From: Trichoplax sp. H2
Lineage: Eukaryota
DNA: 64,000 nucleotides
Reading direction: 5' to 3'
Assembly (NCBI GenBank): GCA_003344405.1
Contig: NOWV01000019.1
Coordinates: 682,001-746,000, forward strand
Under the pieces are notes generated by a model. It did no database searches. It worked only from the letters and a program-made list of their open reading frames with translations, and was not told the origin of the DNA. A program made the position numbers and the translations under genes. Shown piece after piece: positions 2,338 to 63,739 of this stretch (positions are counted from its first letter, which is position 1; each line of letters starts with the position of its first letter).

Positions 2338-9769
<7,432 letters not shown>

Positions 9770-39100: not shown

Positions 39101-42100
39101 TTGGGTAATATATTTGTACTAAATCAGTTACCGTTGAGCCCTTAACTGGATGTAAATATTCCAATACAAGCATGATATGTACGAATAACCGGATGAATCA
39201 GTTACTAAGAAGATTACTATTGCCATTCTCAATCATGTGAGTAAAAAAGAATTGAATATGCGATTAACTTGGATATAATATGCTGCGTTTTTTATGTTTT
39301 ATTATTTTAATAGTAAACTGCAAATACTCGTATGCTCTAACTGGTTTATATTCTACCAATATGTTTGCCAAAAAATTAGAATAAATAGCATATCAATCTT
39401 TCCATATGTTTGATTTAACGGTTACAATTATTGCCTTCTTGTAATAGATTTCATAGATATCGTAATGATGATGAATACAGTTATTTCTAAGAATGCTATC
39501 AGCTGACTTTAGAACTAGTTACAGCTATCAGATTATTTTAGAGTCTGTAGTAGTGCATTTTTGCTGCCTTTTTAAAAACAAAGTAATTATTTAGGACTTT
39601 GCAATACTGTAGTACCCAAATTTTGAAATCTCTATATTTTATGTCCTTAGCAACTTGGAAGGGAACGATTTTACAGATTTCCCAATTGACCCCACTACCT
39701 TTCAGCCATGGATTTATAATCTGTAAGTTAAAGTGAAATATTTCTCAAAGTTGAAAGTTTTCGTATGTTGAAATAAATTGAAACTTTTAAATTTACTCAT
39801 TTATTCAAATCTATCTTTACTTTCTAAGTAATCTTGCAAGAAACAAAATGAAAATAATTTCTGCAGCTGATCTCCAAAATTTGCCTAATTTACGTTCTTT
39901 GTAAGTAAATGAATAGTGTAATAGAGCGAATGATTATTTTGATCTATAAATATACTATTTCTAGTACTCTAATCATTAAAATTATTGTTTTCTTTCTAGA
40001 AATCTAAGCGATAATTATATAATGCAGCTTAAGTCTGAAACGTTCCAATACAATGAACTCTTGCAAGCCTTGTAAGTATGCTTCTATAAATTAGCTTTAA
40101 AATAATGCAGCGAATGCTTAATAGTGCAATTCATAACTAGCTACAATTAATGTGAGAGTAGTTTGAAAAATAACTTAATGTATGTATGAAAGATGCTTGC
40201 GCGAATAAATTCTTTCTTTTCATACACAAACAGAATGGTATAGTTTATTATCCAATTCATTAAGAGATATGTAAATTTAACTGTAATATAATAAATTAGA
40301 GAAAATTCATTTACTTGTTCAATGGTGCCACGTTGATAAAGGTTTATGTCGAGAAACAAATTATTGGGCGTGGAAAAAGATGGTTTTAAAGGACTTTCTC
40401 GCTTAAAAACTCTGTTTGTAAAAGAAGTGTATTTAATAGATTATATAAGTGTCATCATTTGTTATTGTTTGTAAAGAATATGAAAGTAAATATCATTTTT
40501 TTATATAGGCATCTAAATGGCAACCCAATGTATGAAATTCAGAATGGAACATTCACCTCATTGCAGAATTTACGTGTTTTGTTAGTTTCATTACCAATAG
40601 TACAGTTTTTATTTACGATGTTCATGAGTTTCTGAAGTTTAAGTAAAGTATGGTAAAATATTTATCAGAATCCATCTTCCTTATTAGACTTTTGTTTTTA
40701 AGACAAAAATGTGATAAATTAATTTACCATTTGCGGTATTTACTTAATGCAGTCAACCTTAAATATCCTTGAGTTGAAAACCGAGCCTTCATTAAGTAGC
40801 GAATGCAAATGACGTATGAATAAGTAAACTTATGATTATACAGCATATTAGTTTATTTAAATTGTTGACTTGTTTATTAGAAATGAAAATAATTGCAATA
40901 TATAAAGTAGTATCATCAAATTTTAGGAAGATTTAACAAACTAAAATAGGAACATAATTTGCTCTATGGTCTATGATACAAGAAACAGTCTTGCAATAAA
41001 ATTATCCATCTGAATCCTATTTCTCTTTAATATCACGGTTATGTTATGTATGCTAATTTCACTCTTAGACATTATATGCAATTTTAATAGGTTATTACAG
41101 AAGTCGTTGATTCGAGCTATTACTAAGGAGCACTTTCATCAGTTGATCAACTTGAGGACTCTGTATGTATCTAAATATAAATCCACTTTTTTTGTAATCT
41201 TAGTAAATCAGGCTTTATTTAGGATTATGCTAATATAAGTAGTGAGCAATAAATTAATGCTATTTTGACTTCCCTACATTTATTTAATCAAAGTTGTGTA
41301 AGCATTATCGATGCTTATAAACATTATTAAAAACTTTTGTAACATATGAGTACTATTTATACTGGAAAATTGGACAGTTTACTGTAATGTAACTCTATTT
41401 ATTTTTCCTAACTTAAATCTAATAATGCAATTAAATTCTTTATGACCTATTTTTTAACGAGCTAGAGATCTTTCTCTGTCAAACATTATGAGCATTGAAC
41501 ATGGTTCCTTCCAGTCACTAAAAAAATTGAATTATTTGTATGTTATTGATATCATAAGATCTCGAAAATTACTGTATGAAAACGTATTATTAATATACAA
41601 ACAAAGTTTTGACTAAACGAAAAATATTTATTAGCCTGAAGTGTTATTAATTCTTAATTGCAGGTATTTACAAACTAATAACATTCGCCAAATTTCTAAT
41701 GGAACATTTAACGGACTAGAGAATCTTTTTTTCCTGTAAGTTAATACACAATAGAATTAATCCTCAGACAGTAAATATGCAAATGTGGCAAGAATAAGCT
41801 CCATCTTAAAGCCGTTTTAATAAGTGGTATCGGATTTAACATAGTCTGCAATTGCTTTAATAAAAAAAATATATGATTCAAATGGGAGGAAAATCTTCAT
41901 CATTTCATATCTAAATTTTATCTAGGAGTTCCCACAGTAGCTGTAAGCACGAATTAGATGATCCCTTTTTGTTATAGAACATGAATTTTGTCTAGTTTAT
42001 GAAAATATATACCTGTAGCCTAAGTAATAACGGTTGGCCCTTCTAGATTAGTTGATTTTTGAATGCAATTTGGGCTTCATGGATTACCGTACTATAAATG

Positions 42101-45100
42101 AGACATATAATTACGATAGCCTCATAGCAGTAGGAAATCATGACCGTTCCAGTCTTACTTCAGCTAAATGTTGAGGAAGATGCATCCAGCAGTAGAATCA
42201 TAGTTTTTTTATTTTCGACGTACATATCTAAGCTTTTAATAGCTACTGAAGTTGCCTTGATGTAAATTTTATTCATCTTTTTTATTTTCGATTTAGTGAT
42301 CTTACAAATAATCCAATTTTTATCTTGCCATCGGGATTGCTTTCATCCAAACCCAAACTTAGCAATGTGTAAGTAGCATATCTTCGTATAGAATAATCAA
42401 TGTTTCTTTATGTGCGCGTGATAAAGTGATCTTCAAATAATAAATCAAGAACCAAAGTTTCTTATAAACTTCACTTTACTACATAAGTTAGGTTCATCAA
42501 CCTTCTACAATATACTGCAGTAATACTAAGTTGAAATTGTAAATTATAATTTTAGCCGGTTTTCTACATTGGGTCATGGAGGAGCTAAAATTGGGGCTTT
42601 CCGAAATTTAACAAGCCTGAAAACAATGTATGACATACGTGCATATGTTTTATATGATATTTAAAATAATCAAGATTCTTTACTTTAAATATAGTAATCA
42701 ATAACTTCAATTAATGCTATGACAACATAACTACTTCAATACTTCTGCATATCGCAAAGTAAAATATGGGGAAAATGTTTCAGCCACTAAAATCATTAAG
42801 TACGACACATTAATTTTTTACTTAGATTTATCTTTGGTGGCTTCATTAACCGCATCAAATATGGAATCTTTGCTAATTTACCTTCAATCACACATTTGTA
42901 ATGACTCCAGCGTTAAATTATTGCTCATACTTGAGTATAATATTTACTAAATCAAAATAATAATAAATATCGTCTCTTTAATTCCTAAAGTTTTATGATA
43001 AACACCTGGACATCGGAAATTGAAGATGGAGCTTTTCGAAATTTGTCAACCCTTTCATATCTGTATGAACTCTAAATCTGGTTTTACTAAACTAGCCTCT
43101 ATAATTATGTATACGCTTGTGATTTTTGTATCAGAAGTCGATTTTTAGCCAGCTTTTTATAGCATTGTAACATTAAAAACGTCGTACGCCCATAGTCCTG
43201 TCTTAAATATTAGTGCAAAAGCAATGAACCTACTTATAACTTTAGTTCAAGTTTTGAAATAACTTAAATCTTGATTGTGCATCGAATATGCAATTATACA
43301 CGTATTGTAACTCAACGGCAGATTTTATGATACAATATGCGGTACACAAATTTAGGATTATATAAAATTAGGTGAAAATGCCTTTTCTTATTTAATTATT
43401 CCGATTTTATACCGCTAGAGACTTATCTGTGAACGAAATCTCCGTCCTAACCAACAAATCCTTTCTGGGTTTACCGTCTTTGCGATTTTTGTACGTTGCT
43501 ATATCGCTTATTTGATGACGGATTTTAGTAATTTTCGATTTATAACATTTTTTTACGTGTACCAATATCTTTTTATAGCTAGCTTAGAGACTTTTTCGAT
43601 AATAATTATTATAGAAAATGAAAGTATCCCCAAGCTGGTTCACGACTAGAAATGATCATCATGATCTTATTTTAATATTCTTTAGTATAATCTAATAAAT
43701 ATTATTCAATGAACTATGTTAATGAAAATGAGCATATTTAGCATATAATTTAATGAATTCAGAAATGTAAGAATATGTTCATAATCATGAAGGCGAGTCC
43801 ATGCAAAGAAGCAAGCATTGCTCTCTATAGATGCACGAATCTTATAGTTGCAGTCCTAGTCCAAATTATTCAAATATCAAGTAGCAACAGATTAAATGTA
43901 TTCAAAAGTATAAAATGATCAGCTTATAATATTCTACAGGTTTAATTATAGCCTAATACAAATCAGAAATTGATAAATCATAATTCACTACAAAAGTAAT
44001 AATTAGGCCAATACTGTGCTGTGAGAATGTAACTATAGCATTCTTAATACATGCAAATGCTTATGATTAACTAACATGTTCATACTATGTATAATGTAGG
44101 ATTCAGATATTGTGCATCTGGTATATATATATCATGAAATTACCATCGCACGACATCACTGCCATATAATTTTTTATATTTTAGGGGACTAACGCTAAAT
44201 AGAATAAACCATATTTCTAGCGGAACTTTTCGTCATAATCCATACCTTCGATACATGTATGAATAGTGCATTTACTAGAATAGTAACATTAAAGTAAATT
44301 TCCTATCATTTTATGCCTTTGTATACCTTTAATACGCTAATTTATTATCACTACTATCTTAGTAAATGATAAAGTTGAATTTAATGATATTATTGTCTTG
44401 TTGTTGTGGACTAGACGATTGAACTTCAATCGACTGACCTTTATAAGTTCAGCGTTATGCGATGGACCGTATAATATGTACCACTTGTAAGTTTACAAAT
44501 TTTTGTAATGATTTAGTTGAAAAGAAGTAAAGCTAGCTCTCAGTACTGCAAGTAACACAAGATTGCAATAAATAGTGTAGCAATTCGTGACTTATTTCAG
44601 TAAGGTAAATAGAATTCACTGAACATCTGCTGTATGTTAAAATTTCAAATAGAGATTTATCAAATAACAACTTGGAGGAGTTTGGTATTGAAGCACTACT
44701 AAACTGCGCTCATAGCTTGGAAATTCTGTAAGTTCAATAGATTTTATTCTAATGCTTATGAAAACAATTAAAAATAATCCATAGTTTTGAATTATAAATC
44801 AACATAATGTCTGAGATATTATAGTGACTTTTAAAATCTAGAAGTAAAAAGAACAAATAAGTATGTAATAAAGCCGACTTCATAAGCCTTTACATTTATG
44901 TTTACTATGTATAAATTAATAATCAAATAAATTGATACGTATAGTATAAGTAATTTAAGTGAGTTAAACACCAGAGTCAAGATCTTGTCATTTGAAATTA
45001 ATTCAAACGGAAACGCTTAATAACGAGGCCAATACTAGCTGGCAAACTCTTAGATGGTGATTTACTACTTAATCAACATCAAATAGAATGTTACTTCTTA

Positions 45101-48100
45101 ATGCAAACTGAATTTCCTATAAATCATTATGGTAACTGTCCAAAATTACTATCGATTGCAGATACTAATCAAGTTTATGTCATTTTAAAAATAACTGGTG
45201 CAAATGGGAATTATAGAGCATTGTCGCGTAATAAAATCAGTGTCTTCAATCAAACCTATCTGCCCAAATTCAGGAAATTAAAGATTCTGTTAGTATAATT
45301 ATTAATTCTCAGAACGTGATTCTGCACAACTTAATATAGTAAGAAATGTAATTCGGTTTAAAGTCGGTATTATTGTATTCTTATGTAGAAATATGCGAAG
45401 AACTCATATCGCAAGAATATTGCCAGCAAATAAGCCCATGATGGCAATACAACAAGTGTACGTATTTATTTGAATTGTAATGTATAATATGATAAGAACA
45501 GGCTTCTAAACTAATTTACAATCGATTACGGCAATTAATTACTTTTTTCCCCTCAAAAAGCAGAAATTAGTATCAGTTACAAACCAGCTTTGTGACAAGA
45601 TTTACATAAAGAGAATTTTCGAAATTTCTAAAATTTACGGGACTCAGTCTTCCTTAAATAATTACAAGAACTTAGACCCCTTCCTTCTATGTTGCAATAC
45701 CAAAGAATTGACTCAATTCAATAATCTGCTGACCTTATATGCCTTTCAGCAGAAGCTAACATTAATGCATCATCTTACAATAATAATTATCAATATGGGT
45801 ACCAACTGAGTGATTTTACACAGTCGGATTACAGTACAGTATATCCATTCATAGTCATTTCAGCACTCCTACAATCTACTATTAGTAAAAATTTCATTAG
45901 TAAGAGCTCGTATTGTATTCTATTCCTATATAAGACTTTTATTACAATAAAACATATAATTTAGTGTTACATATTTTAACTTCAGTGGTTCATACTGTGA
46001 GTAACTTATTGTAATCACCATATGCAAATGTTAAATTCGCTAAATTTAGCCATTTAACTCTTCATGGTACGAACGTGTAAGAATCCCTTTTTAGCTTGAG
46101 ATTCATATTCCGACGTAATTTATAATACTGGAGTTATATTCCTGCATGATTATACCTGATTTAGCGTGTTTATTCGCTGATTAATAAGTGAATAAACCAA
46201 AGCTGCTCAATAGTAGTATTAGAACATACAGTATATGATAGCGTTTTAGTTTAAAGTCAGCGAATAATTTGCTATGATTAACCAAAGCAGTTCCGAACAC
46301 TTACAGATCTTTAAATAAGATATTTTATCGAATTATTGTTTTCAAATATAGATTTTACTCACTAGATTATTTGCTATCTTACTAAAGTTGTCCCAGTGTC
46401 TAACTGTAAACAATTTCGAAGTTAATCGAAAATACAATTTCAGATACCTTGGTGTCAACTATTTGGTCAATCTTACAATTAACTCACTTTCAGTATTCGC
46501 AAACGCAAGTCGCATGTAAGCATAGTCTTTAAAGCAGTAGAATTATCTCCCCATTGTATAAGGCAATAAATAATCTCAACAATTTCACGACGTTTATATG
46601 CACTTACTAAAGCTATTACACCATTTGATTCAATTGTTACTGGTTTCTAAGTACTCCTAAAGCATGTCTTTATTCTCTTAATTTAAATGGCTCACTTTCC
46701 AATAGCTCATTATATATGGCCAATATTAATGATAACAGTGCAGCAGCTTTAACAAAACTAAAGAAAATCCAGGATCTGTAAGAATTAAAGAATTAAATTA
46801 ATAATCAATATATTTAATGAAGAATTGTTGTTCCTAAATCTTAACCACCAGATCCCACAGCTACAGCAATAAATAAATAGCATTCCTTCTTAGTTAGAAT
46901 ATTGATCACAAATAATTTATAGACGATTGGATTTTAATCACATATCTAAGGACTTCAACTTTAGCGCTAATCAAAATTTATTAAAGCTGTAAGCATATAT
47001 TTATCTAGTATGATTCAAAATTAAATTGAAATATTTGTACCAAGTATATCTATCGATATTTTAATATCGAAATGATCTGTTTATATTTTTAGCAATCTAA
47101 GTCATCAAAATTTAGAGAGCTTAAGTGATGAAAAATTTAAGGGTCTCGTTAAATTAAGAACACTGTAAGTGCAGCAATTGAACCAAATCTCATTATTTGT
47201 ATAACTATTTACAAGATCTGCGAAAAATTTTCTTATATAATTTGATTATTATTCTGGCTTTACGACGTATTATTCATCCAACTCTAGAGATGTTACATCA
47301 AACTATGTCAGCTTTATCAGTAAATCTATTTTTACAAACTTTCCTTCCTTAGTCGAAGTGTAAGCAATTTTGAATTTTAAGTAATCGTTTATAATTCGTT
47401 GTTGCTATAATTAGTCAATAAATTAAAAGTATTTCTTCCATTTTCCTATAAATTAAGGATATTTGACTACAACATTATATCAAAGATTGAGTCCGGAAGC
47501 TTCAGTAATCTGACCAGACTCTACAAAATGTGAGCTTATTCTGCATTTATAATATTTTAGTAATGTGGAAAAGATGAAAACGAATAATAAAACCATATCG
47601 GGAAGTTAGAATTTCTTCATTTAATGCACTAATACATCTTCTAAGATAAAATATTCTTACTACAGATCATTAGTTGCAAATAGATTGAGAGCTATTTATC
47701 GAGATACCTTCCAAGGCAACAATTCCTGCAGAATTTTGTAAGTATTCTCAAAATACGCGATAATTAAAGATGATGCCACCTTCTACTATTCTCACAAATA
47801 TAGTTTAATAATACTGTGTTCTAATAAAATACATATATAAACTTTTGATAGTAATTATCCTATTTGCAGATGTTATATTAGAAGAATTTTACTGTCAAGT
47901 GCAATAAATATATTAATGCCGGCACTTTTAGCAAACATATTATATTTACGATGAACGTATATATAAATCATCTATGAAACAGGCATTTGGCTAGTAACAC
48001 CATCGCAGAAATTCACGAAGATTCCTTTAGTGAAATGAGTTATTTGGAAGAATTGTAAACTTACTAAAATTTAGCAGTTTTCAGAAGACTAAGTTGCAAT

Positions 48101-51100: not shown

Positions 51101-54100
51101 TGAAACAAGTGTAAGCAAAAACAGATCGATCAATTTTAAATCCTAAAGACTGCATGAGTATCTCCTTGTACGGGTATCCGTAATAGTAGCTTAATACTTA
51201 TAATGCTTACGATATGATTCTAAAATTAACCTGTATTATAACTGTAAACTTACCGAAATATTTAAAACGTGTTAGCAATTTAGAATTTAACTATTTAATA
51301 AAGCTCCATCGAGACTTCAAAGTTGAAGAGTTCCGGTTACAGATACTGTAAGGAAACCATATTCCATGCTAATGCCTTAGAAATTAAATACTGTATGTTC
51401 AATTCGATTATTAACAGAACATTTAAATCATACTACTATCATCGACCAAATTTTAACCCATACAGCTCAATCAAAGCCAACTACATTACCGAAATCGAAG
51501 ATAATTTCTTTTCTATATTCGTTGGCCTAAAAACTCTGTAAATACGTATTGATAAATCAATATTTCGGTGACTATAAATTTATATAACTATAAAATACTT
51601 TTTATCCTGTTAAATACCAATTTGATACTATTTGCAACTGTTTCACGCTACAAATACTGGACATTAGTGTCACAAAACAGCTTTGCAACAAGATGACACA
51701 ATATACGATCAAAAAGTCAATTCCTTGAACCACGTATCAAGGAACGATATCTGCACTATCACAAAGACTTTTGCTCTACTAGCAGACTACACAAGGACTT
51801 AAACGCCTCGTATTTTACGTTAAACACTAAGTTGGAGAATTCTCTTTATTTCACGATATACTGCATTTATATACTACTTCTCAATAGTTCATGAGTCACA
51901 TTTAATACAATTAACATTGGAATCATTTACTGGATTAGATATTAATTTTAGCTNNNNNNNNNNNNNNNNNNNNTAAAAACTCTGTAAATACGTATTGATA
52001 AATCAATTTTTCTGTGACTATAAATTTATATAACTATAAAATACTTTATATCCTGTTAAATACTAATTTGATACTATTTGCAACTGTTTCACGCTACAAA
52101 TACTGGACATTAGATATCAGTGAGAATTTGCTTGCATACGAAATTTAAATTCATGCTACTAGGCTAGAATCATGTCTTAAATACAGGAGCTTTGTGCGAA
52201 AAGGCTTGTTTTCTGTAATGTCTATTTAAGACCACTCAGCTGACTTTAGCGTCACAATTAATTATAGAAAGTTACAAATAACCTACTGCAAATAAGCCAT
52301 GCTTCCTGCTAAGACTCGTTGCCAAGTACGATAGATACTTAGCAAAAATTGAAATGTAGATATCATTAGAACCTATTACGGATCAAATCTACAACCGTTC
52401 TTACAGATTATATTTAAAATTCAACGATCTTAGAAGAGCGGTACATTAAACAATGAAATAATGGATATAGTTATAATTTGTATATATTTTACACTATAGT
52501 ATTCTAGCTCCTTTATCTACACGTAAATAACACTCATTCAAATCTTTGATCTGGAAATATAGTTAATGAAATATATGGTAGTAAACCCCAGATGTGTACA
52601 GGGAGCTACTACTGATATAAAACTAATCGAAACTAACCTTTAAATTTCCAGTGATCTAAGTGCTAATCGTATCAAGGTCTTACCAGGATACCTATGTAAT
52701 GACACGCTACTTTCAAAGCTGTAAGGTTGAATGTGGTAATGCGATAAGATCTATCATTAATTAATTACATTGTGGTTAAATTATATTGTTAGCGACCTCA
52801 GCCGTAACAGAATTGGACGAATAAAGCCGTCAGTTTTATCAGAATGCTATCTGGTGGTATCACTGTAAGTAATTCTTAACGATAACATTTATAATATAGA
52901 AATAGTAAAACGGTAAAAACAATAATAATTCTAATGACAATTATTTCTCAGTTAACTTTCTCCACGTAATATAGATATCACGACAAAATTAATGATACCT
53001 AATGCTAACAAACGAAACCTTTGTATATTAATTTTTGCTCGTCTTAAGATCAGATTATCTGATTAAGCTTAGCTATTCTTTCCGTGATGAAATAACGATA
53101 TTGTGTGTTTGAGTCTCTGCTTGCAGATGTTGTAACTTAGATTAAGCAAAGTGTAAGTTGATGACGAAACTCAATGCAAAAGATTTAGTTTCTTTTCGTA
53201 ACTTACTTAATAATACTTATCAAATAACAGTATTGGCCAGTACTAAACAATTGGTAATGCAATAGCAGCGAATTAAGCTATGCAAAATTGTGCACATATT
53301 TATGCATATTTCATCTCTGCATTGTATGTACTATGTTTCATACTTATAATATATTTCTTTTTCTTTTGTGTCTTCATCTGTATTTAGAAATTTGACAGAA
53401 AATCAAATACATCTGTTAGCAAGTAACACATTCAGAAACATGATCTCCTTGAAATATCTGTAGGATAAGAGTTTAATAAATGTTGTCTGAAATGAGCAGT
53501 AATTTTAAAAACTTAAAGAAAAAATAGATCATCATCACATATCGCTAGTACTCCAAATATTTATAGACGCAATAGCAATAATGGACGTGCAATTATTGAA
53601 CTAGTAATGGTTAAAATTTCAACTTAAGCTCGGTTAGGAAAAACTAAATTATTGAAGCAGTACCAGTAAATTTCAAAAAAAATCTGAAGACTTTTAGAAA
53701 GAGCAGAAGTTCTACCTTAATTAAGTAAAACATCAAATAAATAGGACTTAGTCATGATTTTAGAAATTTCCCACTCGTTTCTTGTTAGCTCGTTAATTTG
53801 AATTAACTACTGATCTACATCACCTTTATATGCAGAGCATTTGGTAATACCAGACTATCGACTTATTATTCTTTACTATTCCAATTCAGACTTGACATTA
53901 ATCATATGATATTGTAAATTTTACTCTAGATTCTAAAACTAATATATTATTAGCAATAATCATAATTTAATGGCTAGTTATGTCTTTCTACCGTATATAA
54001 CATATAACAAAAAATACCAAGACAAACCGGCAATTTTTGAATTAGAAACTTTATCTACAGATCCAGGTTTAGACTACATTAAAATTTCATTAAAATATAA

Positions 54101-57100
54101 AATGTTGAAGAAGATGTATAAAATTAACGTTTACAACAAAATGTGCTTAAAAAACTATCGTCTAAGAAAATATAACTACGGTGCAAGCATTAGATGCATA
54201 TGTCTCTGTTTCTAGTTTTAGGTTGATTTGTTGTCCGAAATTCTATCAAAATTGAGTTTTAGTACATGAGTATCTTAATTTGCTTTATTTGCAGTCACAT
54301 TAGAGAAACTACAGTACCTTATATATGATCATAACGTTGTTAAATGAGTAAATTGTTATTTCTGAGATAAATATATTAAGTAATGAATAATACCATATTT
54401 CAACCATGATATTTATTACTCTATGTTCTATAATGATAATTTTATCAATGATTTAGATACTTAAACAATAATAAGATCAATCATATCAGCACTCACACTT
54501 TTCCTTTTCCTTCAGCCATACTAATCATGTACGTAAAATTTATCCATGATATCGTAGGTCAAAATTTGTAATTACGGTAGTTACCATTTTGCCAATAGTC
54601 TCCTACTATAATTTGACTACTTAAATTTCTTTATCTAATAGTTACGCTACAAATGATATTAAATTACAATCAGTTCACTAATGCAATTATTTTGTGATTA
54701 GGCACTTAGGAAATAACGGAATTACTAGTATATCTAAGGACACTTTTGCTGGCTCATCCATTTTAAAATCATTGTAAGCAATTGAAGTGTTTTGGCAGCA
54801 TACCAGAAATTTAGCTCACAGACCATCCAATAGAAACAGGACTGAACTTTTTTGAACATCTATAGATATTTAAATAAGAATAATTTGGCTGGCATACCGG
54901 TTGAATTTATCAACAGAAATCCTTACCTTATGATATTGTAAGATATGTATAAAATATGCTTCCGAAAATGACGAGATATGAGTTTGCATATTTACTCCAA
55001 ACCCTAAAATTATTTTCTTAATGGTTGCAAGGACTAAAACGTACCATACTCTATTTCGAAAATCTATCAAACCCTAAAATTGTTTTCTTCATTACAGCTA
55101 GGACTTACAATTTTTTTATCCTATTTCAAAATCATTCTCAGTAGTACACTTACAGTTACAAATACTAATTCTTTGGAGAAAGTCAAATTTAGTGATAGTA
55201 GTATTAAATAGCTGACGATATTGTACCTTAATAAAATAAAAAATATCAATACCAGATAAAAGCTAATTGCTATCATCTATGAAAAGAACATCATGCATAT
55301 AGAATACAGAACAGGATTTCGAGCAATATAAAAATAGTTGCTTTATGCGCTAAACGATATGGTTTAATATCAACGAAAGATTAGCAAAAGCAATATTTTT
55401 GCGAACGTGTTTTTGCATTACGTAATCTTTACCAAACGAAGTCGTATTTAAAATTAAAGAAGAATTTGTAGCAGCTAAAGCTATAGCAAACCAATTCTAA
55501 TGATACAATGAATTTACTGTAGCCTTGCAATAGCTTTAAAAGCGATAATTACTAAGGAAGTTAAAAATCAAGAACTATCTCAACCATAAAATATTAATTA
55601 TTCTACCCCGTGGCTGAACTTTGAAAATCTCTAATTTCTCCACTATCTGTATCCATTAAAGTATTTCTTTCGGTTTTATTACTTATGTTGATTTAGTGAT
55701 ACTTCTATTTTTTATTGATTAAAATATGAACTAGAAATCTGTCTGAAAATAGAATTCAAGAAATCCCTGATCATATCTTCCGAGATCCTATCAATTTGAG
55801 ATACTTGTAAGTCAAAACGTTCGTACGAACGACGCGCAAATCTTTTAGATTAGAAATTTCTCCTAGAATCCTCACCTACGTAATTTCTGCAATATTTAGA
55901 CGGATAATGAATGAATAATTACCTCTAACTCATTAATATGCAATTGTGAGAATTAAGTACTATATCCTATAGAAAGCTTAAATAAAACAAACGATATATA
56001 ATTTTGAGGTTGATATAATATAATTCTAATATTCCGTAAAAATGATCGATTAGCCTGTGTAGTATTTTCACTTATTTACAGTAGCTTGGTATATTGTAAG
56101 TATGAATTAATGCGAAGTAAATACTAAATAACGTAAAATAGTCGGTATGCTATATAAACCGTAAAATTGATAAGATATTAAGCCGTGAAAAATAAACTTA
56201 TGTGGCCTTATCTTACATTAACCTATATCACAGTGAAACATAACTTAGGAATACTTAAGTATCTACCGACTTAAATATTGCTGCTACCTGAAGTAAAATT
56301 CACTTTACTTAGTACAGGAAGATGAAACATTTATAAGCAATTACCTTGTCATTTAAATTGCTCTCGTTCATATTCGTGAATGCATCTAGCTGATATGCTT
56401 CTGCAGATTATTCATCGTAATTTACTATGCAAGATTTCTTCAAGTACAGCATTCGCAACATAACATTTCACTTAAGTAAAAATTTTTATCCACTACTCAT
56501 CAGTAACTTTAGCTGTCTTATTTAGCTATTCTGAATTAGGATATAATCTTGTTGCTTTCAGTGAGCATTAATGGTAGCTACTAAATACGGGAGTTTATAG
56601 CATCCGATCTTAAGTATCAATTCTAGTATGACATTAGCAACAAATCTAGCTTTGCAATTGCGGACTTTGCTATAACTATATATAGCTATGTGAGTGGTAA
56701 AAATTTCACCGTATGAGACTTGCATGTATGCTTTCCTTCAATTAAGAATTGTGAATTTAATAGAATGATCATCGAACTTTCATAACATTGATTAATTATT
56801 AAAGGACTAAAGGTTTAGTAAATGGTTGCGATAATAATATATATCCTACCTACATTGGGTGTGATTTCTATGCTTATTATACTTTTAATACATTAAAATG
56901 GATTTTATTTTATGTATTAGACATTAATGGTATCTTACTTCATAGGTCTTTGGCGTATAATGGAATAAAATCATTTAAAATTCAAGCATTTCAAGATTTA
57001 AGATCAATTTATTTCTTGTACGGTTAATTACATGATTCTCATATGGGCAATAATTTTCGATTTTTACAATGTTCTAATATTACCGAACAATATATGCCAT

Positions 57101-60100
57101 TCTTGTTTTATTCTAAGTTCGTTAGATGGAAATTACAACATACAAGCGTCAAATTATGCAGTATTGGAACTATTCCCTCATCTACGATATCTGTATGAAT
57201 CCTTACATGATAAGCTATTGAAATTTTCATGATCTCTATAGCTAAATTTTTTAACTCTAATCTTACTGTATTACATGGCTAAATCGAGCTCTATCTGATT
57301 TTAGTATTGCTGTTATAGAATATTATGACTGATATTATGCGGTTGCATAAAATTCCAAGAATTATCATAGCTTATTTATTACTAATGCGTATTTTAATTA
57401 TTCCATGTCTTTATATGTTCTAAAATGACTGTTGATGTTACCAACAATAAGTCAAATACGAGAGTGCAGGTTAAACAGCACAGTTATTATGCAAGAAATC
57501 ATTAGAAGAGCTCCAAACTTGAACACAATGTAGGTTTGATTTTCAGATAATCTTAATATCTAGAAGAAATATATTTGAAAATCTTTTAATTGATATTCAT
57601 CAATGATAGAATCCTCTATGCTATCAATTTAGCTTCATTTACGCAATTTTACCGACGTTGTCATTCCAAGACTTAATCTAAAATAATATTTTTGGAGAAT
57701 AAAATTGATTTTAGTGGTCAATAATATAATCGTTAACTACTGTATTTCATATTGCTACAATTACTGCATTGCCTTTACTACTCCAGTATTATCACCTTCG
57801 AAATATTCTAGTGCATAATCTCTATGTAATCTAATAGATGAACCTACGTATTCTATTCGATCCCAGCCCTACAGCACAGCAGCGAATCCTACAAAGGACA
57901 ATCAGAAAAGCGAATAACCTATGTTGGGCGATATGCGCCAATTTAAATTAGTTACTACTATTATAGCAAGTACAGTTTTCTCAAAGTTTATGCAAACCCT
58001 ATAAAATGTTTACCAGAAGAACTATAATTCATTATTTTTTTAATTTTCAAACGGTTTCTATAAATTATCCATTTAAATCTTTGATCTAAAATTAGAAAAT
58101 TTACGTAGGTTTCGGTCCTTGATATCGATGTTAATTCTTTTAACCGTGAAATAAACTGTTTAGTAATTGAGCAAGTTTAAATTTAGGAATTAATCTAATT
58201 TGATCACATTACCATTACCGTAAAAAAGTTACATTAGAATTCTGGAGTAAACATCGTCCGTTTTAAATAAATTAATTTCACCGTTAAGGCTTTAGTTAAG
58301 CTTCTAAATTAATTACAAGAAATTAGGTTATTTCATGTCAGCAATATTATTTGGTTATAATAATTTAAAAGTTATCTCGTTCGTAGACTTTTAGATGGCA
58401 ATAATCTTACTGGTACTCCTTTACATATACTTAAGATGCTACCCAAACTCGAACAGATGTGAGTCTTCCATCTAAATATCTAATAATTACATCTTCATAC
58501 TGTAGCCATGCTGATTTCCTTCTTGAACATTGCCTAGCAGTAGCTTAAGCTACACAAATGTTACGCTTAAAGAAGTGGTTGCTATTCTATCAGAGAATTG
58601 GTATTCTGCCATGTATGTAAAACTGACGTACTATACATAACATAGTATATATAAAAGTCAAATACTCAAAGATGGGAATAAGGAAATTTCCTACTATTGG
58701 AAAAGATACTAATGGATGATTATACGTTTCTATCTAAACATTGTAGATCTCTGAAAGGTCTCAAACTTCGTAAGATGCCAGTAATCGTAATAGAATCGAT
58801 TCCATTTTTAGGAACTATGTACGAGTAAAGAAAAATTCGAAAACTTTAAACTGGCTATCACGTATAATACACGTATACCTAAAACTTGTTAATTTTTCTC
58901 TACATTTAGCAGTCTTTTTATCTTCTAATTTTTATAGGATGCTTGATAATAATGAAATTGACGAAGTACATATGTCAGATTTATCAGCTTTCAATTATCT
59001 GAAATTCTTGTGAGCAATTCGACTAATCTATATTTTGCTACTAAGTTTGAAGGATATAATAAATGACGCTAAATCGGTTAATTATATTATTCGCTAAGTA
59101 AATCCTAAAAAGTTTAGTTTTTTAGTCTATATTGTTGAGTAAATTAATCATTAAAAGATAAAATTTTATTTTAAAAATATGTTGTACTAATTTAATGAAA
59201 ATCTAATTTTGCAGATTTCTCTCCAACAATAGATTAAAAGATTGGGATTACAACACTTTAATCAGACTACCAAATGTTGCAACTTTGTAAGTGTTTCAAG
59301 CTTAACATAATAATAAAAAAAAGGAAGATTGACTATCATTTTACGACAATTTATTTTAATAGTTCCTAATTACTTTAAAGAATTATTTTCCTTCAACTGT
59401 AATATCTGACCTAAAATTTACTGCTACAATCATTACTGAGTAATTTTTCGGCTTGCGTATTAAAGGAACAGTGCAGTATATTTATGATGATACAGTTACT
59501 TCAATAGATTTTTTTCAGTATTTAATATTTATTTAATGTTAATAAATATTTACTAATAACACTGTGAACTAGCGATATTCAGCGCGGTAAGTTTACTCCT
59601 AGCGCTGTATAGGCATTCATTGCACAAAATATACTGTAGCAATGATATCTTAAATTCTTAAGCATTTGCAATCCGAGAATGAAGCAGTTAATATCATAAT
59701 CAATTTGATTGCTGTTGCAGAGATTTGTCGCACAATCAAATATATGATATTTGTAATCGTACTAAGCCAAACGTTTCCTTGCGGGTTTTGTAAGTGTACC
59801 AATTAATTTAATTTGATGTCTATACAATTAAAGTTAATCTTGCTTCATTTATGTTTTGCTACCAATAATGTCAGTAAAATCAGTCTATTCAAATATAATA
59901 AGACGGACACATTAAGCCGATATCACTGTATTGAGGTTACCTAGAAGTTGATTGGCCTAACTATGCTTAAGTTCTCAAAAATAGCTTTGACGCGATAATG
60001 CATCCTGTAATGATTTCAGCTAATTTTAGTAGTACAGTAGGTGGCAAATAGAATGAGGTAGTGTACTTGTACTGTTTCTAGAATAAGACTGGGATTGTCC

Positions 60101-62224
60101 AGTTAAGGCTGTATCTGATAGCCAAATTCATATTTCTCATTAGGGAATTACTCAATTTTGTTAACTCAAATTTTTGGCTACATAGGCGAACCAACAATAA
60201 CAGCAGAAGACTATTACTCGATCTTTACTGCCTTATTTTTTATTCTAATTAATAGATATCTCCATTACAACCGGATTAGCAAACTGGACAAATTTTGCTT
60301 TTTTGGACTACCCTATCTTCAATTAGTGTATGGAATAATTAACGAATTATATTATTAACTTAATTTTCTACGCATTAAAATATTAAATTCTTAGACCTTG
60401 ATGGATATTTAGAACTGTAATAGCTACAATTTTTTCAAATATTTTGTTAGAAAATGTTTACAATAATTTCTATGCCATCATTTGTTGTCTTTAGAGAATT
60501 CTTTTAAAGTTTTAGAAGTACGGTATCGTTATTGACCCTATCCAATACTCTATTGAAGATAATATTTAGGATAATTTTATGTATTGCTGTTCTAAAGGTG
60601 TCTAGTAACTACTTTAATAATGATTATGGATCATTAAAATGTAATAGGCCGAATTACTGTGTATTTGCTTAAAATTAACGCATTCAGATATTAGATTCCC
60701 AAATATTACATCATTTGCATATTCAGTAAAATCTGTTAATAATTAATTAATAATACGGATATGATCACTTTTCGCAATTGAAAAATATTTATGGCACATT
60801 TACCATAATTATCAGTAGAGAGACATCATATCGGGCAACTAAAAAAAATAATGCACTATCTATTTCTATCTTAGAACTTTAGATCACAATCCAATCATGG
60901 AATTTAGTAGCCAAGCCTTCTGGTTCTCAAGATCACTTACAGAAATGTAAGAATATTATTTCATTCAAATAATCCATAGAACAGCTACTAATTACTGATG
61001 ACTGCAAAGCAAAATTGATTCAGCATGTATCTTGTTGGAGCTATTAAGAAATCATTCATATCGTACCTATTTTTCAGCATAAGTCAAAAATATCGCTTTC
61101 TCTTAATTTTAATTAGATCTTCTACTCGTGAATACCTCTGCTGCAATATACCTTCCACGGTTATCTCTTGTAAACCGCTACCTAGTCAACTTAGCTTATC
61201 TACGTGTTCTTATATTCTATCGCATAACATCCTAAGAATAATTATTTGGATTTTGGGTAACCTTGCAGTGATTGAAAATGCTATATCTATTGTTTGGCAC
61301 TCTCCATTCCGAAAGGATGGAAAGTGCGTTCCAAAAGTATTAATTGTAAACTTATCCATTGCGGACTTTCTAATGGGAGTCTATTTGATCATAGTCGCAT
61401 CTGCTAATACGTTTTATGCCCAGCGCTACTCAGAATTTGTAGAAGTTTGGTTAAGAAGTCCAGCATGTTTGATTTCATGCTTTCTTATCTCGCTATCTTG
61501 TTTAACATCGACAATTATTTTACTACTCATCACGGTTGATCGCTTTCTTTATTTAGTCTTTCCTTTTACTAGTTATCGCTTAAGATATTCCTTATTATTA
61601 TGGGTTTTGATTGCGGTTTGGTCTATATCTATCGCTTTTATAGCTGTTCCTATCGCATCAAGCTTTGGTCAATCCTCATATTATCGCCTATATGGCACGA
61701 ACAGCGCTTGCTTGCCTGGAAATGTCGATAACTACTGGTATTTAACATGGTTAATATTATATTGCGGCTTCACATTTGCAGTATGGATAATTATTGCAGT
61801 CTTATATATACTTATCATTAAGTCACTTACGCAGTCTAGGCGGAAAACAAAGCAAAGTTTATCGAACATTGATAAAATTGCTACAGCTAAAATGGTTTCA
61901 GTTGTTATAACAGATTTTATATGTTGGCTGCCGTTTTATGTTATTATTACGCGGGTTTTATTGGGATATGGATTAGATATTCATACGTTGCCATTCATCG
62001 CAGTTTTAGCTTTGCCCTTGAATTCTTGCATTAACCCAATCATTTATACCATCTTTACGAAAAAGTTTACGAATTACGTGAATTCTTATCTAACTTGTTA
62101 TAAGTGTTATAATCGTCAGTATCATGCATCGATGGCAATATACACCACATCGATAATTAGTAAAAACGCTATTAGTAAACTGAATGTGGTAGCCAAGGAA
62201 GGTAATGAATCTGTCAAGAAATAA
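36118..62224 (+). CDS. Giant leucine-rich-repeat GPCR, type C (RXFP/GRL101-like): putative signal peptide, degenerate LDLa-like module, Cys-rich region, LRR N-cap, about 51 LRRs, hinge and rhodopsin-class 7TM
   Basis: Exon 61117-62224 encodes a hinge (YLCCNIP...CKP...STC) and a 7TM with type-C LGR motifs NLSIADFLMGVYL, ITVDRF, YGTNSACLP, VITDFICWLP and LPLNSCINPIIYT. I counted 51 AG/GT-bounded phase-2 exons of 66-84 nt (mostly 72) between 39651 and 60946, each encoding one LRR (e.g. 39829-39900 NLARNKMKIISAADLQNLPNLRSL; 41664-41735 YLQTNNIRQISNGTFNGLENLFFL; 55735-55806 NLSENRIQEIPDHIFRDPINLRYL). The N-cap exon is 39128-39236. The 5' exons (36118-36184, 36382-36474, 36804-36854, and those starting near 38111, 38323 and 38671) are less certain. 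Confidence 0.9.
51954..51973. other. Assembly gap (20 N) inside the GPCR gene, with a 140-bp duplication (51528-51667 and 51974-52113)
   Basis: The run of N is visible; the sequence after the gap repeats TAAAAACTCTGTAAATACG...GGACATTAG with 4 mismatches. Confidence 0.97.
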
Positions 62225-62951
62225 ATTTTGCAACTAATGCTCATCTTATTTCATCAAATAAAATATCTTAGTATTAGTTGATTATTACCTTTTTATATAC
62301 TGAAAGTTTATATCAGAAGCGCATAGTTTTAAATTATCGGAGTACTAATAATTATAACCAATTTTATTGCATGGATACGTTAAAATGATTGACTTTTCAA
62401 TAAAGTTTGGATTCAGTTTCTATTAAAGAGACTATAGGTGTACTTTAACCTTCAGACCAAGGAGAAATTATTTATCAGTAATAGATTTTGCTGTAGGTAG
62501 TTGTCACTTGTCAAAGAAGACAAACTTGACATTAGATTTGATGTGTTAAGTCGTTAATGGCATATTTAATTTCTTCGTTATAAGTTTTAACTTTTAACAG
62601 TATCATACCGAAATTATCATATTTTAGTCTAAAATTAAATATATCTTGATATACTTAGTGTAATAGTTTTGCAAGCAAAAATGTACTATTTTTCAAATTT
62701 TAATCTAAAAAAAAATATAGAAAATCTTTATTTAGACGTTAGCAAGTAATTTTACGATAGTAACGAAATCACTTTAATATTTATACCGATGTATATATAT
62801 AATTCAGTAATTTACTTCAAATCATATTTTGGAATTAAATCGTATCCGTAGTGGGAATGAGAAATGGTACATGATCACTTGTAAATGAATTTTACCGTGA
62901 TTAATATTTATTACCTAAACTTTATTACCTTGTAATCTAAACTTAAAAAAG

Positions 62952-63739
62952 ATACTGGCTTTGCCAATTTTCAAGTCGTAATACTCAACCTTGGCGAATT
63001 TCCTCTTAAATCTGTAAGTATTTCACTCCTATAGTGTATGTTATTCACTCCAGACAGTTATTAGCAGTCCTCGAAATCAATCTTAGTTTGCTAATTTGTT
63101 ACGAAAAGAGTTCCGTTGCAATTTATAATATAAAATTATTGATATTTTTCTTTGACTTCAGGGCTATATCCGTGCTCAATTTATTAATAAAAATGGAAAA
63201 ACCTTATTTGCTTTGATAAAATTATATAATAAAGCTGAAAGAAAATTATGGGAAAAGGAAGTAGATTTCTATCGCTACGTTCACATGAGACGTTGGTGTT
63301 TACTAAACGTATCTCAATGTCTTTGGATATGTGAAGGAAAGAAATGCCATATCTCTTTACTAAAGAAAGATAAAGCCAAGCTACTAGATAAATTGTAAGT
63401 TGATCACAATCACTTAATAGTATTGGATTAAAAGTCCCAGTCATATAACTTTAATACGCAATTAATTAGAAATAGTCAACGTAGACAGTTGCAATAAATC
63501 CACGGTTTAGAAATGAAGAAAGATTATTAGTAATAAAACTGTCAAATATATGAGATTTCATCTGCCAATTGCCCATAATAATTATCAGATTTCTAAAGCA
63601 AAGCAAGTAAATTTGTAATGTCAAGATATATTAAAACTTACAGTGGTACATTTTATCATCCTGCTCACTTCTGGGCAGAATTATACCTGCCAACGATTAT
63701 ACCATTACTAGATGAAATTCAGTTTAACGAAATTGATAG
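62952..63739 (+). CDS. Exons encoding a protein-kinase-like N-lobe fragment resembling TGF-beta-receptor-type kinases; probable spliced C-terminal extension of the upstream GPCR, possibly continuing beyond the window
   Basis: 62952-63013 (phase 1 to 0, GTAAGT donor) reads TGFANFQVVILNLGEFPLKS. 63162-63394 (phase 0 to 2, TTCAG acceptor, GTAAGT donor) reads GYIRAQFINKNGKTLFALIKLYNKAERKLWEKEVDFYRYVHMRRWCLLNV... A further open phase 2-2 exon at 63644-63739 is weaker. The kinase resemblance is by eye only. Confidence 0.55.

Follow-up and report, generated by a model that had tools for sequence, protein, structure and literature searches.

A single Trichoplax gene in the 64,000-nucleotide stretch of DNA analysed here (hereafter the window) probably encodes an LGR that carries about 53 LRRs, belongs to a placozoan-specific expansion and may work through a long solenoid. 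As predicted from the sequence, the full protein should reach about 1,970 residues.

The LRR exon array

On the + strand, an LRR profile, a splice-site matrix and RNA joints together identified 53 small exons from 39651 to 60946, each encoding one 'typical' LRR of about 24 residues (43 exons of 72 nt, three of 69, two of 75, two of 66, two of 78 and one of 84). The profile, derived from 25 seed exons, was used to score all 3,899 open intervals of 60–90 nt bounded by AG and GT/GC on both strands. As a strand control, 73 intervals on the + strand and none on the – strand scored at least 10 bits; a threshold of 8 bits gave 82 and 2. The degenerate repeats at 45389–45457, 57452–57529, 58541–58612 and 58747–58818 were added by splice-site matrix scan or RNA joints, which also gave the full 72-nt form of the exon at 44415–44486. 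The RNA consisted of assembled contigs from four runs of four studies (X5, X6, X7 and X9), compared over 41450–61449. All parts of the gene are listed below, where P0254 denotes the public H2 model RDD45091.1 and P0041 a public protein aligned to the 3' part.

39171–39236, +, rival candidate first exon: donor GTGAGT, splice-site scan
39280–39329, +, candidate first coding exon, tentative: Met and hydrophobic signal-like peptide, donor GTATGC, right phase (ATG-to-donor scan, hydropathy filter)
39651–39722, +, LRR exon 1, degenerate, 72 nt: 3.1 bits; splice scan; outside the RNA-compared stretch
39829–39900, +, LRR exon 2: 21.1 bits; open joined frame
40000–40071, +, LRR exon 3: 25.0 bits; open joined frame
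40342–40413, +, LRR exon 4: 19.8 bits; open joined frame
40509–40580, +, LRR exon 5: 25.7 bits; open joined frame
41091–41162, +, LRR exon 6: 17.5 bits; open joined frame
41466–41537, +, LRR exon 7: 22.1 bits; open joined frame
41664–41735, +, LRR exon 8: 28.2 bits; RNA joint 41735>42297, 4/4 runs
42297–42368, +, LRR exon 9: 18.8 bits; RNA joints both sides
42556–42627, +, LRR exon 10, most degenerate repeat: 16.9 bits; RNA joints both sides; core positions 2/4
42826–42897, +, LRR exon 11: 18.9 bits; RNA joints both sides
42991–43062, +, LRR exon 12: 22.4 bits; RNA joints both sides
43419–43490, +, LRR exon 13: 24.7 bits; RNA joints both sides
44185–44256, +, LRR exon 14: 29.8 bits; RNA joints both sides
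44415–44486, +, LRR exon 15: 72-nt form set by RNA joints 44256>44415 and 44486>44653
44653–44727, +, LRR exon 16, 75 nt: 17.8 bits; RNA joints both sides
45217–45288, +, LRR exon 17: 18.0 bits; RNA joints both sides
45389–45457, +, LRR exon 18, 69 nt, degenerate: RNA joint 45288>45389 in 3 runs; 69-nt side in X5, X9; splice scan
46444–46515, +, LRR exon 19: 12.4 bits; splice scan
46706–46777, +, LRR exon 20, degenerate: 2.0 bits; good splice sites; no RNA row among those listed
46923–46988, +, LRR exon 21, 66 nt: 2.5 bits; splice scan; no RNA row among those listed
47093–47164, +, LRR exon 22: 19.6 bits; RNA contigs over 47126
47288–47359, +, LRR exon 23: 22.2 bits; RNA joint to 47458
47458–47529, +, LRR exon 24: 23.4 bits; RNA joint from 47358/9
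47666–47737, +, LRR exon 25: 19.7 bits
47983–48054, +, LRR exon 26: 21.3 bits
48127–48198, +, LRR exon 27: 15.7 bits; X7 record 17 over the exon, continuing into the intron
48779–48850, +, LRR exon 28: 17.5 bits
49206–49289, +, LRR exon 29, 84 nt: 16.5 bits; RNA joint to 49400
49400–49477, +, LRR exon 30, 78 nt: 14.9 bits; RNA
49611–49676, +, LRR exon 31, 66 nt: 13.2 bits
49791–49862, +, LRR exon 32: 4.1 bits; RNA contigs over 49823
51039–51110, +, LRR exon 33: 25.6 bits
51276–51347, +, LRR exon 34, 72-nt form: splice scan (acceptor 3.6, donor 11.0)
51466–51537, +, LRR exon 35, last before the N gap: 16.1 bits; RNA contigs over 51503
51954–52113, no strand, 20-N scaffold gap (51954–51973) and 140-nt copy: 97% copy of 51528–51667 (last 10 nt of exon 35 and 130 nt of intron)
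52652–52720, +, LRR exon 36, 69 nt, start of P0254: 14.6 bits; RNA joint to 52793
52793–52864, +, LRR exon 37: 18.7 bits; RNA; P0254
53388–53459, +, LRR exon 38: 22.3 bits; P0254
54457–54528, +, LRR exon 39: 21.9 bits; RNA over 54496
54702–54773, +, LRR exon 40: 24.3 bits; RNA over 54739
54866–54937, +, LRR exon 41: 19.5 bits; RNA over 54900
55735–55806, +, LRR exon 42: 30.3 bits; RNA over 55770
56946–57017, +, LRR exon 43: 23.4 bits; P0254
57118–57192, +, LRR exon 44, 75 nt: 3.5 bits; RNA joint 57192>57452/4
57452–57529, +, LRR exon 45, 78 nt, degenerate, left out of P0254: RNA joints both sides in X5
58387–58458, +, LRR exon 46: 18.6 bits; RNA joint from 57529
58541–58612, +, LRR exon 47, ambiguous acceptor: RNA joint 58612>58747, 4/4 runs
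58747–58818, +, LRR exon 48, degenerate: RNA joint; splice scan
58938–59009, +, LRR exon 49: 18.9 bits; P0254
59215–59286, +, LRR exon 50: 23.1 bits; RNA over 59255
59721–59789, +, LRR exon 51, 69 nt: 19.8 bits; P0254
60256–60327, +, LRR exon 52, left out of P0254: 25.0 bits; RNA joint 60327>60875, 3 runs
60875–60946, +, LRR exon 53, last: 23.3 bits; RNA joints both sides
61117–62200, +, hinge (CC..C.P..C) and complete 7TM exon: RNA joint 60946>61117; Pfam; donor near 62200 inferred from P0041 alignment
62945–63013, +, C-terminal tail exon: tblastn with P0041
63159–63395, +, kinase-like tail exon, N-lobe: tblastn with P0041 and P0001
63645–63737, +, kinase-like tail exon: tblastn with P0041; about 189 more residues beyond the window

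Every intron of the array splits a codon behind its second base, the codon being that for the first L/I/V/F/M of LxLxxN; all exons share one phase, and the frame joined through to 62200 is free of stops over 1,636 codons. At least three of the four core LRR positions are kept in 51 of 52 scored repeats and the ladder Asn in 41 of 52. A preliminary description of this DNA had proposed about 51 LRR exons in one ectodomain, uninterrupted by a stop or a 7TM, with some 1,230 residues of LRR in a receptor of roughly 1,800 or more; the present model of 53 exons and 1,274 residues of LRR bears this out, and tblastn with P0041 and P0001 found no 7TM in the window other than the one beyond the array. 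The exact number of LRR exons is uncertain by about two, and for exon 47 the acceptor could be 58538, 58541 or 58544. Extra small non-LRR exons may lie within the longest introns, the joints listed being 15 of 57 plus a table of alignment variants. Pairwise identity between LRR exons averages 37% (maximum 56%); random intronic 72-mers give 30% and 47%. Such low mutual identity marks the exons as old and diverged, and the array therefore arose neither by recent duplication nor as an artefact of assembly.

Transcripts and the scaffold gap

Among the joints listed, at least 18 of the 47 neighbour joints (GT..AG) expected are visible in RNA, 13 in the main table and five among the alignment variants. 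All 18 connect adjacent exons of the chain, most of them in three or four runs, including 60946>61117 into the 7TM exon, and an RNA row is listed for at least 33 of the 47 small exons that the comparison covered. One 360-nt contig (X7 record 24) covers exons 51–53 and 156 nt of the 7TM exon. The RNA is in pieces, with no single contig across the whole array among the records listed. Retained-intron or shorter isoforms are possible, since a few contigs run on into intron sequence: X6 record 9 beyond exon 18, X7 record 17 beyond exon 27, and X6 record 10 over 48416–48635.

The preliminary description had allowed for a division into two or more transcripts, for instance at the gap near 51960. The 140 nt that follow the 20-N gap restart inside exon 35 and repeat its end and the adjoining intron at 97% identity; the two sides are therefore overlapping contig ends of one locus, and the gap is no gene boundary. 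Public models cover this gene only in part: TRIADDRAFT_60495 has 697 residues and RDD45091.1 has 1129, and both are truncated, with most LRRs missing. The latter, itself flagged partial, starts directly after the gap at exon 36 and omits exons 45 and 52; against the exon chain it shows three mismatches in 855 aligned columns, the remainder being gaps.

Two other gene structures have to be weighed against a single, constitutively joined chain. The public H2 annotation would imply an upstream LRR-only gene (exons 1–35) and a downstream LGR (exons 36–53 and the 7TM), and the joint 51537>52652 is indeed absent among the RNA joints listed. This division is nonetheless hardly credible, given the sequence overlap, a phase and LRR register that run unbroken across the gap, and the lack of a start, stop or terminal-exon signal there; contig depth is also the same on both sides in X5 (7.57), X7 (5.1) and X9 (10.4), which is suggestive, equal depth not being proof of one contig. 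Alternatively, the exons could form a library of cassettes whose main products are shorter, with variable LRR subsets or as LRR-only secreted forms ending in retained introns, the 53-LRR protein being made rarely or never. Since all exons are phase-symmetric, any subset would stay in frame; 57 RNA joints were reported against the 47 needed for a constitutive chain, and both the contigs entering introns after exons 18 and 27 and the omission of exons 45 and 52 from the H2 model would fit. We consider this quite improbable, as every visible canonical joint links immediate neighbours, no skipping joint occurs among the best-supported ones listed, and RNA contigs do join exons 45 and 52 to the exons next to them. 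For at least five of the surplus joints, an alternative alignment of a neighbour joint is a sufficient explanation, and three are non-canonical or lie in repeats. Minor isoforms are still possible, because contigs drop rare variants.

Protein domains and relatives

The LRR solenoid is uninterrupted, without internal Cys caps, and contains nine Cys in total and 22 N-glycosylation sequons. An extracellular domain of 1,300 residues requires a signal peptide; at the 5' end, an ATG-to-donor scan with a hydropathy filter found no clear signal peptide and LRRNT cap. By arithmetic only, if X6 record 9 holds all of exons 1–17, its length would leave about 189 nt for exon sequence 5' of 39651. The array is followed by a short hinge whose four Cys follow the type C pattern of RXFP/GRL101, as seen in the hinge alignment, and by a rhodopsin-class 7TM (61118–62203; Pfam 7tm_1, E=8e-27) that keeps the motifs DRF, CWLP and NPIIY and whose exon is 99% identical to P0041.

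Downstream of the 7TM exon, the gene goes on to encode a kinase-like C-terminal domain that extends beyond the window, a tail absent from the preliminary description. Pfam kinase matches stay below threshold, for P0254 (E=3e-4 and 7e-4) as well as for P0253, P0079, P0083, P0001, P0151 and P0220. Weak PDB sequence matches are protein kinases in 41 of 45 cases, the pseudokinase VRK3 being the best, and the 50 best Foldseek matches are all of kinase fold. In ESM Atlas, the feature score was 0.97, and TM values to Pkinase clusters were 0.52–0.57. With the catalytic HRD and DFG aspartates missing (alignment A1), the domain is predicted to be a pseudokinase, a kinase-like call drawn from sub-threshold Pfam matches and low-confidence models (pLDDT 49; Atlas model pLDDT 0.64).

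According to the main text of a 2022 review (PMC9545775), LGRs of types A and C have 7–9 LRRs and those of type B 14–18, figures with which the earlier comparison to the classical types is consistent. The same text counts 46 LGRs in T. adhaerens, of which 41 are specific to the lineage and unusually rich in LRRs, and includes Tadh-LGR-15, with 34 LRRs, as an example (Koch, Hauser and Grimmelikhuijzen group, Front Endocrinol 2022); the word 'kinase' does not occur in it, and the C-terminal pseudokinase is thus without mention there. Our gene is an extreme member of this known placozoan-specific expansion. It comes from the same organism group as these receptors and, like them, joins an LRR ectodomain that greatly exceeds those of types A, B and C in length to a Cys hinge and a rhodopsin-type 7TM, the last being 49–54% identical to at least eight other TRIADDRAFT proteins. 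It differs in its 53 LRRs, the published example having 34. The uniqueness that the preliminary description had implied for such a long array does not hold, given the receptor in print and P0031, a 1,634-residue LGR from a public assembly with about 43 contiguous LRRs (21 LRR_8 stretches; 41 motif matches) before 7tm_1. This gene is thus not the only GPCR with an array of more than 40 LRRs. P0031 differs in a 7TM only 26% identical, a large non-LRR N-terminal region and an insertion in the 7TM; a kinase-like tail was not found in it.

Outside placozoans, the best named 7TM matches are type C receptors (RXFP1/RXFP2 and GRL101, the latter at 30–34% identity), which also have the short hinge CC-x-C-x-P-x-C before TM1. 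They differ in having about 10 LRRs instead of about 53; here, no LDLa module was found in the 64-kb window, a kinase-like tail is present, and the third and fourth hinge Cys are more widely spaced. The type B receptors LGR4/5/6 resemble the present protein in their LRR horseshoe and rhodopsin-type 7TM, LGR4 being among the weak LRR matches, whereas they have 14–18 LRRs, another hinge, LRRNT/LRRCT caps and a lower 7TM similarity, none being among the best 7TM matches listed. Long arrays of 24-residue LRRs also occur in chaoptin, artichoke, Toll/TLR and plant LRR-RKs (BRI1), and chaoptin, artichoke, Slit and Toll are the best generic matches to exons 36–53. In plant LRR-RKs, too, an LRR ectodomain is found together with a kinase fold in the cytoplasm. 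Chaoptin, artichoke, Toll and BRI1 have a single-pass or GPI anchor, in contrast to the 7TM found here, and Pfam detected no TIR domain in our protein. BRI1 is superhelical with 25 LRRs, TLR8/9 are ring-shaped with about 26, and the number in chaoptin is about 41.

Proposed mechanism

We propose that the glycosylated solenoid would offer a very large concave binding surface and, being too long for a planar horseshoe, would spiral or kink at its degenerate repeats. The preliminary description had suggested that such a solenoid may form a superhelix and may serve pattern recognition, adhesion or large-ligand sensing rather than peptide-hormone binding. It could bind a large or multivalent extracellular partner, and binding would be relayed through the hinge to a 7TM that, with its microswitch motifs intact, is probably signalling-competent, the dead kinase domain serving as a putative intracellular scaffold. 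By inference only, a non-hormone ligand, such as a microbial or food surface, matrix or the surface of another cell, is more likely than a small peptide hormone.

The same gene might instead act without GPCR signalling, as an adhesion molecule or co-receptor in which the 7TM is an anchor and the pseudokinase a scaffold. There are analogues for such a role, LGR4–6 acting for R-spondin and chaoptin being a long-LRR adhesion protein. The nearest generic relatives of the LRR region (chaoptin, artichoke, Slit, Toll and LGR4, at 21–30% identity), the absence of the LDLa module, which activates type-C LGRs, and a tail that appears catalytically dead would all suit it. We regard it as unlikely, since the conservation of DRF, CWLP and NPIIY favours a working activation switch. 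The RNA variants listed point the same way, in small numbers: nine nonsynonymous and six synonymous variants fall in the LRR exons, a ratio that among these variants gives no sign of diversifying selection, whereas the 7TM exon holds four and six.

An array of LRR exons joined to a 7TM receptor

The window is AT-rich, with a GC content of 28–30% across the receptor locus versus 32–42% upstream, and the genes within it are split into small exons. All open-frame intervals of 60–90 nt preceded by AG and followed by GT or GC were collected on both strands (n = 3,899) and scored with an LRR profile derived from 25 obvious LRR exons and refined in one iteration. On the + strand, 73 intervals scored at least 10 bits, and every one of them fell within 39.8–61 kb; the - strand had none. 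Degenerate repeats were recovered through RNA joints and with a weight matrix for splice sites, based on 43 confident exons, resulting in a chain of 53 LRR exons (39651–60946, + strand). Forty-three of these are 72 nt long and the others range from 66 to 84 nt, each length being divisible by three. Intron phase is uniform, the codon being cut after its second base in every intron, and the split codon specifies the leading hydrophobic residue of LxLxxNxI, which is L in 27, I in 7 and V in 5 of the 42 rows of 24 residues. The repeats belong to the "typical" 24-residue type, with the consensus LxLxxNxIxxIxxxxFxxLxxLxx; the ladder Asn is present in 41 of 52 repeats and at least three of the four core positions are kept in 51 of 52. 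The whole LRR region spans 1,274 residues, including nine Cys and 22 N-x-S/T sequons, with no Cys-cluster cap inside it.

The open frame at 61019–62224 (401 codons) encodes a rhodopsin-type 7TM domain (Pfam 7tm_1, E = 8.2e-27, 94.7 bits for a cut-off of 30.5) that keeps the microswitches DRF (at the DRY position), CWLP and NPIIY. After exon 53, the 7TM exon begins with a hinge containing four Cys (CC-x7-C-x-P-x9-C), a motif common to the Trichoplax paralogues and found with a shorter spacing in receptors of the GRL101/RXFP type. The locus combines three attributes of an LGR, namely a rhodopsin-type 7TM domain, in-frame N-terminal LRRs on the same transcript and a Cys-rich hinge. Adding 319 residues of C-terminal tail and a short N-terminal exon to the 1,636 codons of the joined LRR-to-7TM frame, the predicted protein reaches about 1,970 aa. 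The preliminary description had counted about 51 LRR exons, equivalent to about 1,230 aa of LRRs and a receptor of at least 1,800 aa: the long array is real, the number arrived at here is 53, give or take about two, and the sizes, although of the right magnitude, were slightly low. Its statements on the open frame and on the classical LGR types hold: the frame is open over all 1,636 codons and across the joint 60946>61117, leaving no stop between LRRs and 7TM, and the repeat number lies above those of the classical types (7–9 for A and C, 14–18 for B, in the review PMC9545775).

The database protein closest to the 7TM frame is TRIADDRAFT_60495 of T. adhaerens (P0041, 697 aa; 99% identity), which shares a 90% cluster with RDD45091.1, the public H2 model annotated as "GRL101-like, partial" (P0254, 1129 aa). 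The latter shows 3 mismatches to our spliced translation over 855 aligned columns, the remaining differences being gaps; the H1 protein carries several substitutions in the tail exons. The window thus derives from a Trichoplax genome of the H2-like kind. Public annotations contain 0 to 16 of the 53 repeats. The gene model given here is corrected and supported by RNA, and the case shows how severe the truncation of genes with one LRR per exon is in placozoan annotations. The LRR numbers of published surveys probably represent minimum values on the same grounds.

DNA identity between LRR exons is 56% at most, and the repeats show no super-repeat period (|z| <2 at every lag, 500 permutations). 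The array is old and stems neither from a recent amplification nor from a collapsed or expanded assembly. There were no Rfam matches in 39000–64000. Two tandem 64-nt units, 72% alike, were noticed at 54998–55061 and 55068–55131, within the intron 3' of exon 41.

Transcript evidence, the scaffold gap and the 5' end

Among the runs containing the window DNA, three held 64–69% of its words and were DNA-like, and several held 7–15%, as expected of spliced RNA; two of the latter are recorded as RNA-Seq. Logan contigs from four RNA runs of four studies (X5, X6, X7 and X9) were aligned to 41450–61449 only, where 57 joints were detected and the exon chain predicts 47 joints between neighbours. At least 18 of these 47 were observed among the joints listed, mostly in three to four runs each, all of them GT..AG and each connecting adjacent exons. 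They run unbroken from exon 8 to exon 18 and further include 23-24, 29-30, 36-37, 44-45-46, 47-48, 52-53 (60327>60875) and the joint from exon 53 into the 7TM exon (60946>61117). RNA rows exist for at least 33 of the 47 small exons of this stretch, variant rows included; exons 45 and 52, skipped by the public H2 model, are spliced in according to RNA. The 3' part of the array is bridged by a 360-nt contig (X7 record 24) that passes from exon 51 through exon 53 and into part of the 7TM exon, and contigs of 2.0–2.2 kb from X5 and X9 begin 8 nt 5' of 61117 and extend far past 61449, as expected if tail and 7TM lie on one mRNA. None of the records listed covers all 53 exons, and part of the stretch, e.g. 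56124–56790, is free of RNA cover. Equal depth does not prove a single contig, because in X5 a depth of 6.52 occurs both at the contig starting 8 nt before 61117 and at exons 44–50. The long array is supported by RNA, and the gene is one unit.

Some contigs depart from the chain. A few run past the donor of exon 18 or exon 27 and enter the intron, or carry intronic sequence joined to upstream exons (45389–45557, 48127–48269 and 48416–48635); these may represent pre-mRNA, retained introns or alternative ends giving LRR-only products. In three runs (depth 15–31), position 59757 is joined back to position 49056, the two being separated by 29 other letters, and the same contigs, which contain the segment 59697–59757, have a long loose end before 59697. 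The contig may be chimeric, or the join may come from a repeat shared by both sites or from a different transcript. Nonsynonymous and synonymous variants among those listed number 9:6 in the LRR exons and 4:6 in the 7TM exon, with 29 further variants; these counts are too few to be conclusive and give no sign of diversifying selection.

The preliminary description had allowed for a split of the exons into separate transcripts near 51960, where the scaffold has a run of 20 Ns (51954–51973). The next 140 nt (51974–52113) are a 97% repeat of 51528–51667, a segment that comprises the final 10 nt of exon 35 and, from the donor onwards, 130 nt of the following intron; the first copy continues into 51668–51953. 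The flanks of the gap are thus overlapping contig ends of a single locus, with no gene boundary between them, and such ends are the likely reason why the H2 model is partial and begins exactly at exon 36. RNA depth reaches hundreds to thousands at 51718–51953 and at 50352–50892, as compared with 2–15 for the receptor gene, and the second of these segments shows heterogeneous loose ends with many different flanking sequences attached. Both resemble copies of an element that is present many times and transcribed widely, for which neither an Rfam match nor a second copy within the window was found, and the break at the gap probably results from a repeat insertion.

The 5' end of the gene is tentative. 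Two candidate first exons fit in phase:

39171–39236, + strand: candidate first exon with the stronger donor and a weak hydrophobic core
39280–39329, + strand: candidate first exon with Met and a nine-residue hydrophobic run, signal-peptide-like

In the profile scan, no LRR-like exon upstream of 39651 scored above 3.1 bits. If an X6 contig of 1,595 nt holds exons 1–17, simple arithmetic leaves about 189 nt 5' of exon 1. The N-termini of eight paralogue models, which start within LRRs, gave no convincing match to the window upstream of 39651. Regular expressions for a Cys-cluster cap (30000–39660, + strand) and for an LDLa signature (six frames of the whole window) gave no match, the latter result to be read with the tentative 5' end in mind. 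Some 13 kb upstream of the array, 26197–26264 (+ strand) combines an ATG, a strongly hydrophobic signal-peptide-like run and an in-phase donor; it probably belongs to another gene, the alternative being a distant first exon of the receptor. Pfam searches with 150 of the 157 frames of at least 55 aa starting before 39700 (all but seven from 33611 on) matched neighbouring genes only, all of them upstream of the receptor:

14010–15235 and 9426–9668, + strand: CacyBP/SIP-like exons (Siah-Interact_N, CS, SGS) and a weak Spc25-like match
18564–18923, 23391–23786 and 25352–25600, - strand: LIM-homeobox gene (homeodomain, E = 2e-15; two LIM domains, E = 1e-14 and 5e-17)

A kinase-like tail

Mapping P0041 onto the window placed three tail exons 3' of the 7TM domain:

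62945–63013, + strand: tail exon
63159–63395, + strand: tail exon
63645–63737, + strand: tail exon

About 189 of the 319 tail residues lie beyond the window end (64000). PK_Tyr_Ser-Thr and Pkinase matched P0254 with E = 3e-4 and 7e-4, their scores on the tail being just below the Pfam gathering cut-offs (20.5 bits for 23.1 and 19.4 bits for 31.7). These profiles also match the Trichoplax paralogues P0001, P0079 and P0083, the LDLa-bearing LGRs P0151 and P0220, and the fragment P0253, named "Protein kinase domain-containing protein" in UniRef. Protein kinases account for 41 of 45 weak PDB sequence matches to the tail, the pseudokinase VRK3 being first. In the ESM Atlas, the feature score was 0.97, nine of ten rows reached the bar for Pkinase or PK_Tyr_Ser-Thr, and residues 380–697 gave structural TM scores by query of 0.52–0.57 to Pkinase clusters. 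An AlphaFold model of the tail from a 7-row alignment (pLDDT 49) retrieved only kinase folds among the top 50 Foldseek rows (E ≥0.005), which for a model of this pLDDT is a weak pointer to that fold.

The beta-3 Lys and the Glu of the next helix are kept in the aligned tails. At the HRD and DFG places, the five aligned tails, as well as the alignment with VRK3, read HG[N/S/G] and [E/K/N]F[S/T], respectively. From this alignment, we read the tail as a pseudokinase, as the catalytic Asp of both HRD and DFG is absent. No LGR with a kinase-like tail was found in the literature searched, and the word "kinase" does not occur in the portion of the review text available (PMC9545775). The data point to such a tail in some members of this receptor family, a feature that merits separate attention.

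Relationship to known LGRs and possible function

PMC9545775 reports 46 LGRs in T. adhaerens, 41 of them placozoan-specific, and a placozoan example with 34 LRRs. An LRR-rich placozoan LGR family is therefore already in print and the present locus is an extreme new member of it, raising the largest repeat number known for an LGR ectodomain from 34 to about 53; the gene, with its number of repeats, may already be included in the supplementary table of that review or in a thesis cited there. The 7TM domain shares 49–54% identity with at least eight other TRIADDRAFT proteins (including 61227, 32194, 61684, 31783, 32302 and 18229) and at most 38% with all remaining matches. The locus thus fits the placozoan-specific LGRs, with which it shares being encoded by Trichoplax and having its nearest 7TMs there. 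In a simple LRR motif count covering 252 relatives, this protein gave 42 hits (out of 53 repeats), P0031, an unnamed LGR of 1,634 aa, 41 (about 43 repeats by length), the H2 paralogue P0124 32 and P0118 28; the counts of relatives are lower bounds because many models are truncated. With residues 1–450 of P0254 as query, only generic LRR proteins (chaoptin, artichoke, Slit, Toll, LGR4) were retrieved at 21–30% identity from 8,000 candidates scored, a search that did not return the query's own cluster and hence does not imply the absence of a longer ortholog.

Two known receptor classes were compared. Type C LGRs (RXFP, GRL101) share the CC..C.P..C hinge, although the spacing before the last Cys is longer here, and GRL101 proteins are the best named non-placozoan matches to the 7TM in the similarity search. 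In contrast, type C receptors have about 10 LRRs instead of 53 and an LDLa module, of which no signature was detected in the window; membership in type C thus fails on both counts, although the hinge pattern and the resemblance of the 7TM domain suggest that the receptor is type-C-like in origin. Toll-like receptors combine a TIR domain with a single TM, whereas no TIR domain occurs among the Pfam matches of P0254 and a 7TM domain takes its place.

About 26 typical LRRs close a ring, as in the ectodomains of TLR8/9, and plant LRR receptor kinases show a superhelical twist. Given ring closure at about 26 LRRs, 53 uninterrupted repeats cannot stay in one plane; the solenoid would spiral for about two turns, or kink at the degenerate repeats 10–12, 18–21, 29–31 and 44–48. 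Such a long LRR surface would be better adapted to partners that are large or multivalent than to a small peptide. Ligand binding could be passed to G proteins or arrestins, as the intact microswitches of the 7TM domain argue, while the dead kinase domain might serve as a docking platform. Switching presumably proceeds via the hinge and, for want of an LDLa module, would differ from that of type C receptors, whose activation needs this module according to PMC4837482.

Placozoans are described as being without canonical TLRs in PMC6321704. In an animal that also has no neurons, a large lineage-specific family of LRR-GPCRs would be an evident candidate for the sensing of surfaces or microbes, a role that we find attractive. 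In its boldest and rather improbable form, the proposal would be that the longest known uninterrupted LRR solenoid of any GPCR, of about two turns and coupled to a pseudokinase, belongs to a placozoan family replacing Toll-like receptors, in which 7TM-pseudokinase proteins sense microbes, food or self surfaces through a new signalling architecture shared with P0151 and P0220.
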